Origin: Candidatus Bathyarchaeota archaeon
Lineage (GTDB): Archaea; Thermoproteota; Bathyarchaeia; 40CM-2-53-6
DNA length: 64,000 bases
Direction: 5' to 3'
Assembly: GCA_963706285.1 (NCBI GenBank)
Contig: CAVPLU010000013.1
Span: forward strand, 96,001 to 160,000
The position numbers and the translations under genes were made by a program. Below are positions 223 to 33,780 of the stretch, piece after piece. Under the pieces are notes generated by a model. That model was given only the letters and a program-made list of their open reading frames with translations. It was not told the origin of the DNA and did no database searches. Positions within the stretch are counted from its first letter, which is position 1; the number at the start of each line of letters is the position of its first letter.

Positions 223-548
223 GACGGTGGCGGCATCCCCAAGTGATGGACACAGTTTCCTTCCACGGTTTTTCAGATGCTTTCTATACCCTGTGATCCT
301 ATCAGCGCCAGCATGTCGACCTTACGACTGCCCTCTTCCGAGTCTCGCCGGGTTCGGCCGCAAAGAAGTCGACCCTTCCCTTCGGAAGAGCCTCTTCCTC
401 CACCGGCCCGGTAGGGCAGGATTTCATCGTTGGCAACTGAAGCCTATGAGAGGAACCAAATGCCTCTCCCTTGAGTTAACGGATCCCCGCGTAGAGCCGA
501 TTTCGGGTAACAAGGAACGGCTGACTCCTCGATCCCCCACCACCGCCG
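223..548 (-). ncRNA. ffs: Archaeal SRP (7S) RNA
   Basis: Terminal helix GGCGGTGGTGG/CCGCCACCGTC; Alu-like TTGTTACCCGAAATCGGCTCTACGCGGG; helix-8-like GAACCCGGCGAGACTCGGAAGAGGGCAG; about 325 nt; TTAAAG about 25 nt upstream. Confidence 0.88.
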
Positions 549-13460: not shown

Positions 13461-14564
13461 CTACCGGGTGATTTCCAAGCTCATGACACGCCTGAGCAGT
13501 TCAGGGTCTTTCCCAAGTTCACGTCTTACACCCTCAAGCCTTCTCGATAGTCCGTCGGCAACTGCGTCTTTAAGATCCTGAGGATGAAGCTGGCCAAGCT
13601 CGTATGCCTTCTTGAGCTCTTGATAATCGTCAAATCTGACGTTTCCTCCGTACTTGAGCGGCCTTTGGATTTCGAGGCTACCCACCTGAGGCAACAGGAC
13701 TAGTTGAACGATTTCTAGTACGGGATTGTTCTGAGTCTCCTTGGACGGGCAATATGCGGATCTCATTTTCTTCTTGATCTCCTCCGGTTCTTCATGAACC
13801 AGAATTGCGGTTCCAGGAATGCTTTTCGCCATCTTTGACCCAATTTCGGAGTTGTACTCAGGATTCTCATCAAGGTCGTTTGCGGTGGCTGCAGTTGCGA
13901 CGGTTTGGGATTTGCCGGCAAGGCCCGGCAGGAGAGGCGTGTGTACCGAAACTGGCTTTCTTCTCTGCAGTTTCTGAGCGGATTCCCGAGCTATAATGTG
14001 TGCCTTCCTCTGATCAATTCCCGCGCAAGCGATATCAAGATCCATCTGAAATATGTCCGCAGCTTGCATGCAGGGATAAAGCAACGCTGCTGTTTCAATG
14101 TCTTCCACGTCCATTTGTCGCCCCATTATCGGAAGTGCCCTGAGCATTCTCTTAGTTGAATTTGATTTGGCTATTCTGATTACTTTCTCCCAGTAGTCGA
14201 GAGCACCTTCAACCTCAGAGCCCAATCGATATGTGACCTTATCTCCGGTGAGTCCGAGTCCAATGAAACATTTCCTGAAATATTCGGCGCATAACCGGAT
14301 GTTGTCAAGATTGGCGCCGAGTTTGTTATTGATCCATGCGTGCCAATCCGCGAGGAAGACCGTGAAATTGCAGCCCGCGTCCACCATGTCTTTGATCTTA
14401 CCTCCGCAGACTAGCCCCGTTCCGATGTGCATGCCCCCGCTCGGCTCGAAGCCCCAGTAGGCTTTTGGGGCAACTGTTGTTTCCAAGAGTTGTCTGAGTT
14501 CGTCGCCTGTGATAATCTCTTCTGTACCTCTTGAGATAAGTTGTAGTCGTTGCTCCGCATCCAA
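13461..14564 (-). CDS. tyrS: Tyrosine-tRNA ligase
   Basis: YWGFEPSG.MHIG, ADWHA, YPCMQAAD, DQRKAH, KMAKS, LHPQDLK. Confidence 0.95.
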   Translation of the reverse strand: MDAEQRLQLISRGTEEIITGDELRQLLETTVAPKAYWGFEPSGGMHIGTGLVCGGKIKDMVDAGCNFTVFLADWHAWINNKLGANLDNIRLCAEYFRKCFIGLGLTGDKVTYRLGSEVEGALDYWEKVIRIAKSNSTKRMLRALPIMGRQMDVEDIETAALLYPCMQAADIFQMDLDIACAGIDQRKAHIIARESAQKLQRRKPVSVHTPLLPGLAGKSQTVATAATANDLDENPEYNSEIGSKMAKSIPGTAILVHEEPEEIKKKMRSAYCPSKETQNNPVLEIVQLVLLPQVGSLEIQRPLKYGGNVRFDDYQELKKAYELGQLHPQDLKDAVADGLSRRLEGVRRELGKDPELLRRVMSLEITR

Positions 14565-14617
14565 TGTGTAGACTCTCGCATGGAAGGTTTGCACGTAGAC
14601 CTCTTAAATGATAAGCT

Positions 14618-14754
14618 CAGGTTTCACCGCGGGCAAGAGTCCAGGGTTACCCGAGCTCCCGCCCTGTCGCCCACGACACTAACACGCGAACTTCATCGAG
14701 GGGCGTCGCCCCACTTGGTCGGCTCTCTCGGGGGTGGGCTGTTTCTGGTGCCTG
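14618..14754 (-). ncRNA. Structured RNA flanked by a BHB-like motif; H/ACA-like hairpin plus second hairpin
   Basis: CAGG-CACC-AGA...GGTG-AAA-CCTG; stem GCCCAC/GTGGGC followed by GACA; CCGA/GATGA K-turn-like boxes; hairpin GGGCGGGAG/CTCTTGCCC. Confidence 0.6.
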
Positions 14755-14782
14755 CAGAGAATATGTTCTCAGCTGAATTAGA

Positions 14783-16483
14783 TTAAGGGTTCGTTGCTGC
14801 AATGTGCAATGTCCGCGTGTTCAGCTCAAACGCAGCGGCGGGGTTCTGGATTCCCCAGTTCTCTAGGACTTGGGGATGAATCTCACCCATGATTCCTACC
14901 TGTGCCTCTCCAACACGTATTGCAGCTGCACGTCCGTTCACGAAGCTTCCATGCTCTAGATCGGTAACCTGAGCGCTCAGACCAAGGTTCGTGAGCAAGG
15001 CATCGATACAAGCTCTTGCTTCGGTGAATGAGGCCTCGGCGTGGCATGTGATGCCTGCAACTTTTGTGATTTCTTGGACGCCGGACCCATCTCGTATAAC
15101 GCAGTCGCCCGTCTCGAAGATCTTCTGAGGGTACGTAACATGAACATTGGCTGCCAGAATCTCCATTAGGCTTGGGATCAGCCAGTCTCTAAGACACGTT
15201 AGGGTCTGTACGCGTGGATTCTGGAGGTCAACAACATTTTCTGGTAACAAGTTCATTCGCTTGAAGAGTTTTTCCGGGTTGGAGAGAGTGAATGTGAGTA
15301 CTTCCTGGAAGCCTAGTCCGAGCATTATTTCGCGCAGCAGATCGTTGAACTCTTGTTGTCTCGTCATGCCGCCAATCGTGGGGTGCGAAGGCCATCTTGG
15401 CTTGATTCGGTTGAGGCCATAGACAATGCCGATGTCTTCAATGACATCAACGGGATGCATAATGTCCAACCGGTAACAGGGCACGATCACATTCAATGCG
15501 TTTTGTGATTTTCCGGACGCGCCGAATCTTGCTTTGCGCAGCAATTTCACTGCCTGAGCGACGGTTAAGTCAATTCCAAGTATTCTCTTCATGTAGTCTA
15601 GTTCAATTCTCACGTGACCTGTTCTCAGCGTGGGCGTCATTGCACTCTTCGTCTTGCCATACGGGTAGTGAACAATGCTCGAATAGATACTGCCGCCGCG
15701 ATCGGCCAGACTGATGGTCACCATCATGAGCGCGTTCAACACTACATCGAGCGATGTGCCGGTGACTTCGACAAGCACATTGTGTGTCTGAGGAGTGATC
15801 CGGCCGAGATCGTTCGAGTTTATGATTGGAGGAAAGGAAAGCACGTTTCCTCTCGAGTCAAGCAGGATAGGCCACAAGGGATTCAGTTCCACAATGTGTC
15901 CGTACTGAATTCCTTTGGGATGTTTGACTAGGATCTCCCGAAGACTCATTCGCTCATTTGTTCCAAGAGGAATGAAGCTAATCTCCTCCGGTCTAGCTAC
16001 AGCGTATCTGAGTGGCGGAGCTATCAGATCGAAGTCGTAGAGTCCGATTGATGATCTCTTCCTTCCTCGACCGTAGCTCTCATCGAGCTTGTCCTGGAGA
16101 TGCATGAGGCCTCGGATTGCAGCGTCCGAAAGCCGAACGCTCTTCACTACCGAGCAGCCGATGAATGGCCTGATTTTCTGCAGGCGAGGGTCAACCGTGA
16201 TTGTTACGCCAGAAGGGCCCGCTATTGTGTAAGTCTTAGGCCCGGTCTCAAGCCCAAGAAACCCCCGCAGGGCCCTCGCTATACCTTCTGGCGACCACAG
16301 GTCTGGTCGATTGGTATCCTTGTTCTCAAGACTGAGCTCCTCAACTCCGCTCTCTTCAGAGATCGTGCGCGTTACATCGCACTTGATCTGATGAAAAATT
16401 TCATTCAGAGCATTGATATCTGTTGGCAACTTGCCGCGGAGCAACTCTTCGAGGTCTTCCTGCTCTACTGATATGGTGACCAT
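14783..16483 (-). CDS. pheT: Phenylalanine-tRNA ligase beta subunit
   Basis: NRPDLWSPEGIARAL, SFPPIINS, YRLDIMHPVDVIED, GEIHP. Confidence 0.96.
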   Translation of the reverse strand: MVTISVEQEDLEELLRGKLPTDINALNEIFHQIKCDVTRTISEESGVEELSLENKDTNRPDLWSPEGIARALRGFLGLETGPKTYTIAGPSGVTITVDPRLQKIRPFIGCSVVKSVRLSDAAIRGLMHLQDKLDESYGRGRKRSSIGLYDFDLIAPPLRYAVARPEEISFIPLGTNERMSLREILVKHPKGIQYGHIVELNPLWPILLDSRGNVLSFPPIINSNDLGRITPQTHNVLVEVTGTSLDVVLNALMMVTISLADRGGSIYSSIVHYPYGKTKSAMTPTLRTGHVRIELDYMKRILGIDLTVAQAVKLLRKARFGASGKSQNALNVIVPCYRLDIMHPVDVIEDIGIVYGLNRIKPRWPSHPTIGGMTRQQEFNDLLREIMLGLGFQEVLTFTLSNPEKLFKRMNLLPENVVDLQNPRVQTLTCLRDWLIPSLMEILAANVHVTYPQKIFETGDCVIRDGSGVQEITKVAGITCHAEASFTEARACIDALLTNLGLSAQVTDLEHGSFVNGRAAAIRVGEAQVGIMGEIHPQVLENWGIQNPAAAFELNTRTLHIAATNP

Positions 16484-22004: not shown

Positions 22005-22132
22005 TGGGGTTGGCAGCTGTCCAAGTTTCGCGTGGCCTTGCGGAACACACTACTGCCTGAATCGCCTGGGAGATTCACTTCCGTGTTCGGAATGGGAACG
22101 GGTCCTAGCTCCCAGCTATGGCCGCCAGCTCC
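22005..22132 (-). rRNA. rrf: 5S rRNA (not linked to 16S/23S here)
   Basis: GGCGGCCATAGC...ACCCGTTCCCATTCCGAACACGGAAGTGAA...GCTGCC. Confidence 0.95.
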
Positions 22133-32769: not shown

Positions 32770-33780
32770 TCAGTCGCGCCACATCTTGGGGTAAGTTCCG
32801 CGAGGCATTAGGACCCTCGTCACTTTGGCAGCAAGCCCTTTCTCTTGTTGAATGATCGACTCGCTAGAGATCAGTGTCCTAGCTAGAGCCACCGCCTCGC
32901 CTTTCAGCGTCATGATAGCTGCTATCGAGTCTTTCTGAAACGGGTCCTCTACGCTGACGACTCCAGGAACCGCGAGACTGGCTCCGTGGCAAACGGAGTC
33001 TACCGCGGAATCGCGAATACAAATCTTCGGGATGTACTCCAGCGCATCCTCTACTGGTCTGACCAAATCCCTGACCATGTTCTCGTCCCCTTCAAGCAAC
33101 CTTGCATGAGCGTCGACGACTTCATGAAGAGTGTGTAGTCCAGTTGAATCCGTAAAGGGCCCCGATCTCGTTCTCCTGAGCTCCTGCATGTGAGCCCCTG
33201 GACCCAACACTTCGCCAATGTCTGAGCAAAGCTTCCGGATGTACGTCCCAGCTTGGCACCCCACTTTGTACAAGACGCGGTTTCCGTCTCTTTCTAGCAG
33301 ATCGATATAGTATATGGTTCGCTTGCGTGATTCTCGCTTAACGGAGGCTCGAAGCGGCGGTTTCTGATATATCTCTCCGGTGAATTCTCCTAAGACTCGG
33401 TTCAGGTCTTCATTCGAGACTTCGCCATGAAGTATCATGAGGCATACGTATTCCTTTCCGGACTGCAGAAAAACTTGTACTGATTTGGTGGCATCCTGAA
33501 GTGCAACTGGAAGTACGCCGGTTACTATGGGATCTTCCCAGCAGATACTGCTTCTAGGGTCCCGCCGTGACCAGCATGTTCCACTTCAAGGATCTTCTTG
33601 GCCCAAGCAGTGACTTCGTGACTTGACGGTCCGGCAGGTTTGTCGAGGTTGATTATTCCGAATCTCATGCGATCTTGAATTGGTCGATCGGCAGGCTTGT
33701 TGCCGTACTTCGGATCAGTTGACTTCCTCGCACTTCTTGACGACGGTACGCTTGACCTCCCATGGAGGCGAGATTTTCAC
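32770..33780 (-). CDS. cbf5: H/ACA RNA-guided pseudouridine synthase Cbf5 (mRNA intron 33534-33553; 1-nt frameshift near 33720)
   Basis: NLDKPAGPSSHEV, GHGGTL[D]P.VTGVLP, GTYIRKLC, PUA domain. Confidence 0.93.
33534..33553 (-). other. 20-nt BHB intron in the catalytic Asp codon of cbf5
   Basis: GGGA CCCT AG|A AGCAG TAT CTGCT GGGA AG|A TCCC; removal restores GTLDP and the reading frame. Confidence 0.88.

Follow-up and report, generated by a model that had tools for sequence, protein, structure and literature searches.

A circular 122-nt box H/ACA guide RNA between pheT and tyrS of a Bathyarchaeia archaeon, probably excised at a relaxed bulge-helix-bulge motif

Between the genes pheT and tyrS of a Candidatus Bathyarchaeota archaeon (GenBank assembly GCA_963706285.1, contig CAVPLU010000013.1), a short element is found on the minus strand at positions 14618-14754 of the 64,000-nucleotide (nt) stretch of DNA that was analysed, hereafter the window, whose numbering is used throughout. 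The element is built as a single-hairpin archaeal box H/ACA RNA, with a lower stem, an internal-loop pocket, a 6-base-pair (bp) upper stem, a kink-turn (K-turn) and an ACA box, and it is very likely an archaeal box H/ACA guide RNA. A circular RNA of 122 nt that corresponds to it was found in environmental RNA, and there is little doubt that this circle exists. Taken as a whole, the element is likely to be a single-hairpin H/ACA guide that is excised at a relaxed bulge-helix-bulge (BHB) motif, forms the 122-nt circle and targets helix 69 (H69) of the 23S rRNA. An earlier note on this DNA, made from its letters alone, had listed the helices, bulges, hairpins, GAUGA and ACA of the element, and all of them are present on the minus strand where it had placed them. 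It had proposed an H/ACA guide released from a pheS-pheT-tyrS transcript by the splicing endonuclease, perhaps as a circle; the guide, the 122-nt circle and a conserved frame around it have been borne out, while cutting by the endonuclease EndA and the host transcript keep the rank of proposals.

A circular RNA of 122 nt in environmental RNA

A search of public runs listed 24 runs, 20 of which contain part of the stretch, and 6 of these are recorded as RNA. The RNA data come from four metatranscriptome runs belonging to four studies (X15-X18), the assembled contigs of which were mapped onto positions 14300-15100. All of the RNA contig cover falls within 14622-14744. In X15 (record 1) and X17 (record 6, word depth 43.9), a contig of 152 nt maps from 14744 down to 14622, then resumes at 14743 and continues to about 14717, its sequence repeating with a period of 122. 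A 152-nt contig of X16 (record 3), which stems from a relative whose second hairpin differs, has the same junction, the letters between ending in ...GCCCGCGGUGAA and then AAAC. The common length of 152 nt is presumably 122 + 30 (k-1), as an assembler working with k = 31 would print a 122-nt cycle. In X18 (record 7), a 133-nt insert standing between Illumina adapter letters crosses the junction and covers 11 nt twice, and because of this double cover it does not come from a linear 122-nt RNA. The RNA is entered in the feature list as follows.

14623-14744 (equivalently 14622-14743), minus strand: excised circular RNA of 122 nt, seen as circularly permuted RNA contigs

Both coordinate pairs give the same sequence because an A stands at each end. 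The junction of the circle joins GGUGAA to AAAC and lies at the symmetric predicted cuts, after AG in one AGA and after AA in one AAA. The unit seen in the four metatranscriptome runs is the very piece (14623-14744, 122 nt) whose excision the earlier note had predicted, and the circular junction that it had suggested looking for was found at the predicted cuts. Within the circle lie the complete guide hairpin with its ACA box as well as a second, plain hairpin. For pheT, tyrS and the joined-exon form, no contig cover was present in the four RNA runs, which, with contigs only, speaks neither for nor against their transcription.

At the DNA level, runs X1-X14 contain 0.28-0.38 of the sampled words. 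In the genomic DNA of this archaeon and of six relatives of the genus, the element is single copy and flanked by pheT and tyrS. The runs with the circle are labelled soil, peat, wetland and groundwater, and none is labelled as a hot habitat.

The H/ACA hairpin and its covariation

The guide hairpin and the second hairpin of the circle consist of the following features.

14669-14739, minus strand: whole H/ACA guide hairpin (alignment A1 of 19 loci, pair counts and covariance model R1)
14739-14734 and 14674-14669, minus strand: lower stem GCCCAC/GUGGGC (fold and covariation)
14733-14723, minus strand: 5' pocket strand CCCCGAGAGAG (alignment A1)
14722-14718 with 14691-14686, minus strand: upper stem (alignment A1)
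A14716 and A14715 facing G14697 A U and G14694 A14693, minus strand: K-turn (read from the sequence)
14714-14698, minus strand: apical stem-loop (alignment A1)
14697-14693, minus strand: GAUGA (sequence)
14685-14675, minus strand: 3' pocket strand GUGUUAGUGUC (alignment A1)
14665-14667, minus strand: ACA box (ANA), 1 nt past the lower stem, A-N-A being invariant in 19/19 loci
14631-14664, minus strand: second GC-rich hairpin (GGGCGGGAG..CUCUUGCCC) without pocket (fold; sequence and length vary among relatives)

The core was found at 76-94% identity in 19 of 41 related genomes, well beyond the conservation expected of a spacer. Covariation was assessed on alignment A1 (19 loci) with a structure of 18 pairs in three helices. 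In this set, 92.3% of the cells are paired and six pairs carry compensatory changes; 0 of 500 shuffles match the observed paired fraction or covariation score, and slid controls pair at 34-55%. The lower stem occurs as GCCCAC/GUGGGC, GCCUAC/GUAGGC and GCCUGC/GUAGGC and the upper stem as CCGGGC/GUUCGG, CUCAGC/GCUGAG and CCCAGCC/GGUUGGG, the apical stem being likewise compensated. The H/ACA identity proposed in the earlier note is upheld by this architecture and by the covariation across the 19 loci.

On the 3' strand of the K-turn, a 3-nt bulge GAU is followed by an invariant GA (columns 51-52) that faces an invariant A (column 28), and a 6-bp helix connects the K-turn to the pocket. The K-turn geometry, as deduced from the letters, has the orientation of the HgcG/Pab40 consensus. 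The earlier note had taken CCGA/GAUGA for the K-turn boxes: a K-turn is indeed present, but the GA of CCGA belongs to the upper stem and the 5' side is formed by A14716-A14715. The rules for archaeal H/ACA RNAs described by Muller et al. (PMC2651775) include a K-turn or K-loop tied to the pocket by a helix 2 of 5 or 6 bp and an ANA following the lower stem. The arrangement hairpin/pocket/hairpin, the K-turn spacing and the ANA box place the element within the class, and a canonical target geometry and a match in Rfam are missing. Within the order, the pocket letters GUUAGU of the 3' strand and GAGAG of the 5' strand are invariant (19/19 loci), with a few variants outside it, and the ANA box reads ACA, AAA or AUA across the 19 loci. 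The second hairpin is missing in loci L017, L034 and L037, and other hairpins substitute for it elsewhere.

The minimum-energy and centroid structures of the isolated segment 14614-14758 (minus strand) both reproduce the frame, the guide and the second hairpin. Compared with shuffles, the stability gave z = 0.08 for 14614-14758 and z = 0.00 for the whole spacer, so that folding energy is uninformative. Because thermodynamics is silent (z about 0), the case rests on comparison and on the RNA data.

The bulged frame around the guide

The guide is bracketed by two short helices and two unpaired stretches, the frame being made up of these features.

14751-14754, minus strand: 5' strand CAGG of the outer helix, staying in the 5' "exon"; pairs with CCUG 14621-14618 in the minimum-energy and centroid folds
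14747-14750, minus strand: 5' strand CACC of the central 4-bp helix, staying in the 5' "exon"; pairs with GGUG, always 4 bp in the order
14740-14746, minus strand: 5' unpaired stretch AGAAACA (7 nt), the 5' cut falling after AG or after AGA; circle junction at 14744/14743
14625-14628, minus strand: 3' strand GGUG of the central helix, ending up inside the circle (fold, frame test and RNA contigs)
14622-14624, minus strand: 3-nt bulge AAA, the 3' cut falling after AA or after AAA; 3 nt and A-rich in relatives, and located at the circle junction
14618-14621, minus strand: 3' strand CCUG of the outer helix, staying in the 3' "exon" and located 24 nt upstream of the tyrS start codon (fold)

Across the order the frame is kept while its letters change. 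The outer helix, 4 bp long here and up to 10 bp in relatives, re-pairs with changed sequence, for example as AGUGUGGG/CCUGCACU in L006 and GCGACGU/ACGUCGC in L013. The central helix always counts 4 bp, in at least eight different sequences (CACC/GGUG, CGCC/GGCG, CGGC/GCCG, CGCG/UGCG, CGUG/CGCG, UUGC/GCAA, GCUG/UGGC, GCCG/CGGC); in L013 and L015 it reads GCGA/UCGC by eye and UGCG/CGCA by script. The 3' bulge of relatives is exactly 3 nt long and A-rich (AAA, AAU, AGA, AAC, and AAG by eye in L013 and L015). In the genera g2, g3 and g11, the 5' stretch too is exactly 3 nt (AGA, ACA, AAA, UAG) and lies right before the lower stem.

A loose per-locus BHB finder was dropped, shuffled flanks often scoring equally, and a stricter, position-bound test was used instead. 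It required a 4-bp helix whose end is no more than 8 nt away from the hairpin that follows, a bulge of 3 nt starting with A and containing at least two A, and an outer helix with its first 2 pairs and 3 of its first 4 pairs formed, the null being given by shuffled 3' flanks. The strict frame was found in 31 of 39 loci of the order versus 4.8 expected by shuffling, and in 6 of 41 loci of the other orders of the class versus 7.6 expected, which is chance level; these are counts over related genomes that are not independent.

The order of elements on each strand is helix, 4-bp helix, unpaired stretch, helix. Canonical tRNA introns at position 37/38 show the same order on each strand. The earlier note had seen the geometry of tRNA introns in this frame; the 4-bp helix and the strict 3' bulge agree with it, but the 5' stretch is 7 nt long and the inner helix is missing. 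Set beside the full helix-bulge-helix-bulge-helix (hBHBh') motif, the element has the 4-bp central helix and a strict 3-nt 3' bulge, with 7 nt on the 5' side and no inner helix. The lower stem and the second hairpin join the 4-bp helix in a junction, and no inner helix is formed from the nucleotides beside both bulges. Because the inner helix is missing and the central helix meets the guide and the second hairpin in a junction, the motif is a relaxed one of the bulge-helix-loop (BHL) type.

The same letters had given rise to a second proposal in the earlier note, that of a stand-alone RNase P S-domain-like or tRNA-elbow-sensing element, drawn from a resemblance of GCACCAGAAAC and GCGGUGAAAC to the RNase P regions CR-II and CR-III that no tool supports. 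This has next to no chance of being right. Another contig of the genome encodes an RNase P RNA in full length (183.7 bits, covering model positions 1-288 of 288), and no RNase P match was obtained in 14400-15000 even at E up to 10. Moreover, GCACCAGAAAC and GCGGUGAAAC are the strands of the 4-bp helix with their A-rich unpaired neighbours, they undergo compensated changes in relatives, and the "GAAAC" strings are accounted for by the frame, as its single-stranded linker and its bulge.

Processing enzymes, guide proteins and the linear alternative

Two genes with an EndA domain are present in the genome, at C12:149004-149243 and C6:75200-75433; the domain scores are 87.9 and 44.8 bits and the open frames count 200 and 181 amino acids, and these two paralogues are consistent with a two-subunit enzyme. 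Heterotetramer or epsilon2 splicing endonucleases are said to cut relaxed, non-canonical motifs (PMC5829648). RtcB is also present, and a PF09414 RNA ligase was not found in this genome, which is 89% complete. With good though not full confidence, EndA and RtcB would provide the route of excision and circularisation. The genes for Nop10, Gar1 and a TruB/Cbf5-type protein are present as well.

Two details of these genes were recorded. RtcB matches at C4:105729-107043 (minus strand) fall in two overlapping frames (model positions 1-243 and 236-426), which points to a frameshift, a misassembly or a split gene. A match to TruB_N (Cbf5-type pseudouridine synthase) lies at about 33238-33534 (minus strand), some 19 kb from the guide RNA, and covers only model positions 16-149 in a 271-amino-acid open frame.

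An ordinary linear H/ACA small RNA (sRNA) with a terminal stem, the circles being incidental, is unlikely. It would fit the circular H/ACA sR109 and the many circular C/D RNAs described without BHB in S. solfataricus (PMC3326292), the Rnl-dependent circular C/D RNAs reported elsewhere (PMC9014305), the plain 12-13 bp terminal stem of the homologues in other classes, and a 5' side that is not a strict 3-nt bulge. Against it, the junction falls at the exact symmetric positions predicted by the geometry in four runs, one of them from a relative, the 4-bp helix and 3-nt bulge are kept through sequence change in this order only, and the genome has RtcB and two EndA paralogues while the PF09414 ligase was not found in its 89% complete sequence.

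Helix 69 of the 23S rRNA as the predicted target

The excised guide is predicted to act on H69, which reads GGGAGUAAC-UCUGA-CUCUCUU at positions 2028-2048 of the large-subunit rRNA (LSU) and is the sole mature-rRNA site where U-R-R-Y is followed by Y-U-Y-U-Y within 9 nt. In the predicted pairing, G14683-A14680 (GUUA, 3' pocket strand) would pair with UAAC at LSU 2033-2036 and G14729-G14723 (GAGAGAG, 5' pocket strand) with CUCUCUU at LSU 2042-2048, leaving UCUG at LSU 2037-2040 unpaired in the pocket. The pair G14683:C2036 stands at the pocket, G14683 being 16 nt before A14667, and because UCUG(A) stays unpaired, U2037 and U2039 come to lie 17 and 19 nt from the ACA box. We take these two residues to be the equivalents of E. 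coli 1915 and 1917.

A precedent for such geometry is stem-loop 2 of the Haloferax RNA sR-h45, for which Majumder et al. (2020, PMC7075261) describe formation of pseudouridines Psi1940 and Psi1942 of the 23S rRNA, which correspond to E. coli 1915 and 1917, from an unpaired UVUN, with 17/19 nt spacing and a required ACA box. The unpaired UVUN, the 17/19 nt spacing and the ACA box all recur in the pairing predicted here. H69 is one of the two top-scoring sites in 16S and 23S rRNA and the only conserved one. The other, U215 of the small-subunit rRNA (SSU), was rejected, since in most of 17 aligned relatives the stem of its hairpin is different. H69 is preferred because it is conserved and the SSU site is variable. 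As far as the intron or insert, the stretch GGGAGUAACUCUGACUCUCU(U/C)AAGG is identical in all 22 genomes that yielded it (13 out of 28 and 9 out of 30 searched), an invariance that parallels that of the guide letters GUUAGU and GAGAG within the order. On the basis of conservation and precedent, and not of statistics, H69 with its U1915/U1917 equivalents is considered a fairly likely target.

The guide varies in a few lineages, in ways that remain compatible with this site. In the genus g11, the guide reads GAGAGUC and would pair with GACUCUC, one step over; in the 23S rRNA of this genus, GACUCUC is directly followed by an intron (G142), or UUAA by a 26-nt insert (G038). The families f22 and f19 lose A65, which pairs with U2033, and gain at position 61, which is U or C in the present guide, an A or G able to pair with U2037, so that their variant guide would leave only U2039 free. 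Separately from the guide, introns or inserts in or just after the 3' strand of H69 were noticed in the 23S rRNA of several relatives: L064/L067 (G142), L124/L125 (G094), L063 (G038), L122 (G109) and L123 (G110). Those points that follow GACUCUC or UUAA/UCAA coincide with the predicted guide pairing site.

Other targets were searched for. Canonical scans, with two unpaired nt and a spacing of about 14 nt, found no good site in 16S, 23S and 5S rRNA, and variants of these scans, with mismatches allowed or with RNAduplex run on each strand, and applied also to RNase P RNA and signal recognition particle (SRP) RNA, found no convincing one. Pocket complementarity to rRNA, which the earlier note had suggested examining, thus gave no good site with canonical geometry and an atypical match to H69 that is not significant alone. 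A genome-wide two-part target scan returned only sites in open reading frames (the best at C14:77957, score 43), which were treated as chance.

A guide for Psi35 of pre-tRNA-Tyr, as in Sulfolobales, would explain the adjacency to tyrS and is nevertheless very improbable. H/ACA sRNAs for Psi35 of an intron-bearing pre-tRNA-Tyr are described in PMC2651775, tyrS is adjacent in 60 of 87 loci, and by eye UAGUGUC of the 3' pocket strand is able to form pairs, at the canonical 14-nt spacing, with the GAUGCUG preceding U35 in the candidate tRNA-Tyr. Three of these seven pairs are G.U, however, and three of the paired letters are intronic; a guide that is invariant throughout an order is unlikely to pair with a fast-changing intron, and a pattern search for CUGUA with a YUYUY run found coding sites only. 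The invariant GAGAGAG, examined by eye, has no partner after A36 in either the pre-tRNA or the mature tRNA, and because the 5' pocket strand lacks a partner this target was rejected.

The tRNA genes themselves gave some separate observations. ARAGORN detected only 26 tRNAs genome-wide, none of them within the 64-kb window; run with its intron option, it called no tRNA-Tyr and mislabelled genes. Nearly all Rfam tRNA matches span 88-129 nt, a length that implies introns. The candidate tRNA-Tyr lies in the first ~150 bases of contig C1 (minus strand), has a C1-G72 pair and an anticodon loop CUGUAGA, and seems to have two introns around an 8-nt exon.

Locus and gene neighbourhood

The guide RNA locus is a 188-nt spacer between two minus-strand synthetase genes, with pheS farther upstream of pheT and a small Toprim-domain gene downstream of tyrS.

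14783-16483, minus strand: pheT, phenylalanyl-tRNA synthetase beta chain, upstream neighbour (Pfam PF17759, 2.7e-43, and PF03484)
13461-14594, minus strand: tyrS, tyrosyl-tRNA synthetase, downstream neighbour (Pfam PF00579, 1.7e-45)
14776-14787, minus strand: A/T-rich CTTAATCTAATT, a possible TATA box judged from its letters, overlapping the pheT stop codon 14785-14783

The frame starts 28 nt after the end of pheT, and the predicted 3' cut falls about 28 nt upstream of the tyrS start codon. The A/T-rich CTTAATCTAATT lies about 25-30 nt upstream of the outer helix, and this TATA-like box, which overlaps the pheT stop codon, suggests an own promoter; it is plausible that the guide RNA is transcribed from it, with read-through into tyrS.

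In the first locus set, pheT lies upstream on the same strand in 17 of 19 loci. Across the phylum, 60 of the 87 loci examined have tyrS downstream in the same orientation, several loci being cut off by contig ends; the counts per group are 16/19, 16/20, 24/41 and 4/7. In locus L014 the RNA and tyrS are on opposite strands, and in L019 the RNA is located elsewhere; it is therefore an independent gene and more than a leader. A cis-acting tyrS leader or intergenic processing signal, with the circle as a by-product intron like that of the HVO_1309 5' untranslated region (UTR), would fit the 3' cut ~28 nt before the tyrS start, the widely kept tyrS linkage and the BHB introns known from the HVO_1309 5' UTR and the cbf5 mRNA (PMC7714728). 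Yet the excised part is a complete, covarying H/ACA hairpin that is single-copy across the class, the placement in loci L014 and L019 is different, the same hairpin occurs in other orders and classes with no bulged frame, and the circle is seen while its flanks are uncovered, a weak point as contigs are concerned; a role as leader is held very unlikely.

A few further observations concern the surroundings. When the TyrS of the window was used in tblastn, several relatives (L036-L046, L050, L051, L080) gave two separate pieces, an N-terminal part of ~45 amino acids and the rest, as might result from a changed frame, an insert or an intron close to the start of the tyrS gene. The window also encodes the archaeal SRP RNA (225-545, minus strand, 161.4 bits) and the 5S rRNA (22008-22129, minus strand, 80.6 bits), the latter remote from the 16S-23S operon on another contig. 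The RNase P RNA gene (C4:378576-378861) follows the end of the 23S rRNA gene (C4:375383-378440) by 135 nt on the same strand, as if in the rRNA operon.

Distribution and evolutionary history

The relatives found by exact pattern search are labelled Candidatus Bathyarchaeia. With covariance model R1, exactly one full-length copy per genome was found in 105 of 151 genomes of the class, and one full-length copy in 43 of 151 genomes of the phylum sample. Elsewhere in the class, in its other orders, two hairpins make up the RNA, both clamped by an additional helix, and the present hairpin corresponds to the 3' one. In these orders (L070-L109), a second H/ACA-like hairpin was seen ~125 nt upstream, its pocket formed by the strands ACGGAC and GUUUACCCA and an ACA coming after it; when the genome studied here was searched with a crude pattern, no convincing upstream hairpin of this SL1-like kind emerged. 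In other classes (L145-L155), the same hairpin stands between pheT and tyrS on a continuous terminal stem of 12-13 bp, preceded by a TATA-like CTTAATAAAAAG or CCTTATAAAAC ~35-40 nt upstream. Both in the other orders and in the other classes, the hairpin is devoid of the bulged frame. In our reading, a plain clamp stem acquired the 4-bp helix and 3-nt bulge geometry in one order, and circularisation took over the role of the clamp. The single H/ACA sRNA of Nanoarchaeum equitans also adjoins the gene of the tyrosyl-tRNA synthetase (Randau 2012, PMC3491384).

Proposed mechanism and points against it

In the proposed mechanism, the precursor would fold so that the outer helix CAGG/CCUG and the 4-bp helix CACC/GGUG bracket the guide, the tRNA splicing endonuclease would cut once in each unpaired stretch and RtcB would join the ends. 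L7Ae, Cbf5, Nop10 and Gar1 would then bind the guide RNA, which would pair with H69 of the 23S rRNA, and U2037 and/or U2039 would be converted to pseudouridine, as by stem-loop 2 of Haloferax sR-h45. The circular form probably stands in for the terminal clamp stem, 12-13 bp long, of the homologues in other classes.

A more far-reaching version, in which the H69 guide became an intron-like element in one order of Bathyarchaeia, is put forward tentatively, as a possibility open to considerable doubt. The guide would be transcribed with tyrS, either from a promoter overlapping the pheT stop codon or as part of the pheT message, be excised by EndA and RtcB at the relaxed BHB and work as a circle, and the tie between guide and tyrS would be ancient, reaching other classes and Nanoarchaeum.

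Several observations have to be set on the other side of the scale. As to the RNA, contigs give no ends, strand or abundance, and the proposed pheS-pheT-tyrS host transcript would have the suggested own promoter as an alternative. As to the class, Rfam gave no match at gathering score, neither for its H/ACA models, which the earlier note had named as a check, nor for any other family, and a permissive scan returned only a weak match to HgcG (hairpin 3 of HgcG/Pab40; 9 bits, E 4.3, cut-off 77). As to the frame, the 5' side is a 7-nt single strand without inner helix and not that of a canonical hBHBh'. Furthermore, the genomes counted are related and not independent, and 8 of the 39 loci of the order fail the strict test, with an A.C in the 4-bp helix (L008-L011), a continuous helix (L016, L018) or a weak outer helix (L042, L044). 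Among the 31 positives, L038, L041 and L080 pass by way of AT-rich solutions that differ from the homologous frame. As to the target, beside the fruitless canonical scans, 194 of 300 shuffled rRNAs reach at least 11 contiguous pairs (4 + 7) under the same flexible geometry, SSU U215 ties H69 in score, the invariant G14679 faces G2032 as a mismatch, and the change of A65 to U in f22 and f19 is not compensated in their 23S rRNA.

Relation to known systems

H/ACA guides, double-specificity H69 guides, BHB excision and RNA circles are already known, and each part of the present system has a counterpart. The closest guide is stem-loop 2 of Haloferax volcanii sR-h45 (PMC7075261), likewise a hairpin with K-turn and ACA whose target is the H69 loop, as predicted here too, with an unpaired U-V-U-N at 17/19 nt and not at ~15 nt. 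Stem-loop 2 is the 3' hairpin of a two-hairpin RNA, an arrangement that the present family shares only in the other orders of the class. In contrast to sR-h45, the element described here is a single hairpin with a bulged frame and a circular form, and leaves one more target base (A2041) unpaired.

Regarding excision, the substrates of archaeal splicing endonucleases that are named in PMC7714728 are tRNA introns, the processing stems and introns of rRNA, a cbf5 mRNA intron and one 5' UTR of Haloferax. The HVO_1309 5' UTR intron and the cbf5 mRNA intron of Crenarchaeota are described there as BHB introns outside tRNA and rRNA. They share with the present element the 4-bp helix with unpaired cut sites, the location in or beside a coding transcript and the circular excised piece. 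The piece excised here differs from them in being a functional-looking guide and in having its 5' cut site in a junction loop (BHL-like). For HVO_1309, EndA cleavage was shown in vitro (PMC7714728), whereas the present guide RNA is known from sequence and RNA contigs. In Haloferax, Pyrococcus and Halobacterium, the intron of tRNA-Trp contains a box C/D sRNA (PMC7714728, PMC12558985). In both cases a guide is released and circularised at a BHB motif, the splicing machinery being the presumed agent here; the present RNA is distinguished by its H/ACA class and by a host that is the pheT-tyrS spacer and not a tRNA.

Modification guides in circular form are also known among the circular sRNAs of hyperthermophiles (Danan et al. 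2012, PMC3326292). The circles of S. solfataricus are described in that study as minor forms without BHB, sR109 having 2 junction reads per sample, while a conserved BHB-like frame is present here and, unlike those of hyperthermophiles, the runs come from soil, peat and groundwater. Finally, the H/ACA sRNA of Nanoarchaeum equitans similarly occupies a spacer next to the tyrosyl-tRNA synthetase gene (NEQ389). It is a 159-nt RNA with two hairpins for which the account in PMC3491384 reports no circle or BHB, and the likeness noted is one of position. The literature searched yielded no report of an H/ACA sRNA that is spliced or framed by a BHB, nor of this RNA in Bathyarchaeia, though supplementary circular-RNA tables may contain such entries.

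Biological significance

If true, a conserved H/ACA guide that is cut from an aminoacyl-tRNA synthetase spacer would be a new substrate class of the splicing endonuclease, and a second splicing route to archaeal modification guides besides the C/D RNA of the tRNA-Trp intron. Should the intron-like version hold, it would be the first archaeal H/ACA guide to come from the splicing machinery, a counterpart of eukaryotic intron-encoded snoRNAs, and the maturation of the tyrS message would be coupled to the modification of the ribosome. A guide circle in archaea from soil, peat, wetland and groundwater also bears on the idea that RNA circles are an adaptation to heat. The linkage between the guide and tyrS is phylum-wide and independently recorded in Nanoarchaeum. 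Finally, the element provides a testable guide for the most conserved ribosomal pseudouridines, those of H69, in a phylum-level lineage without a cultured model.

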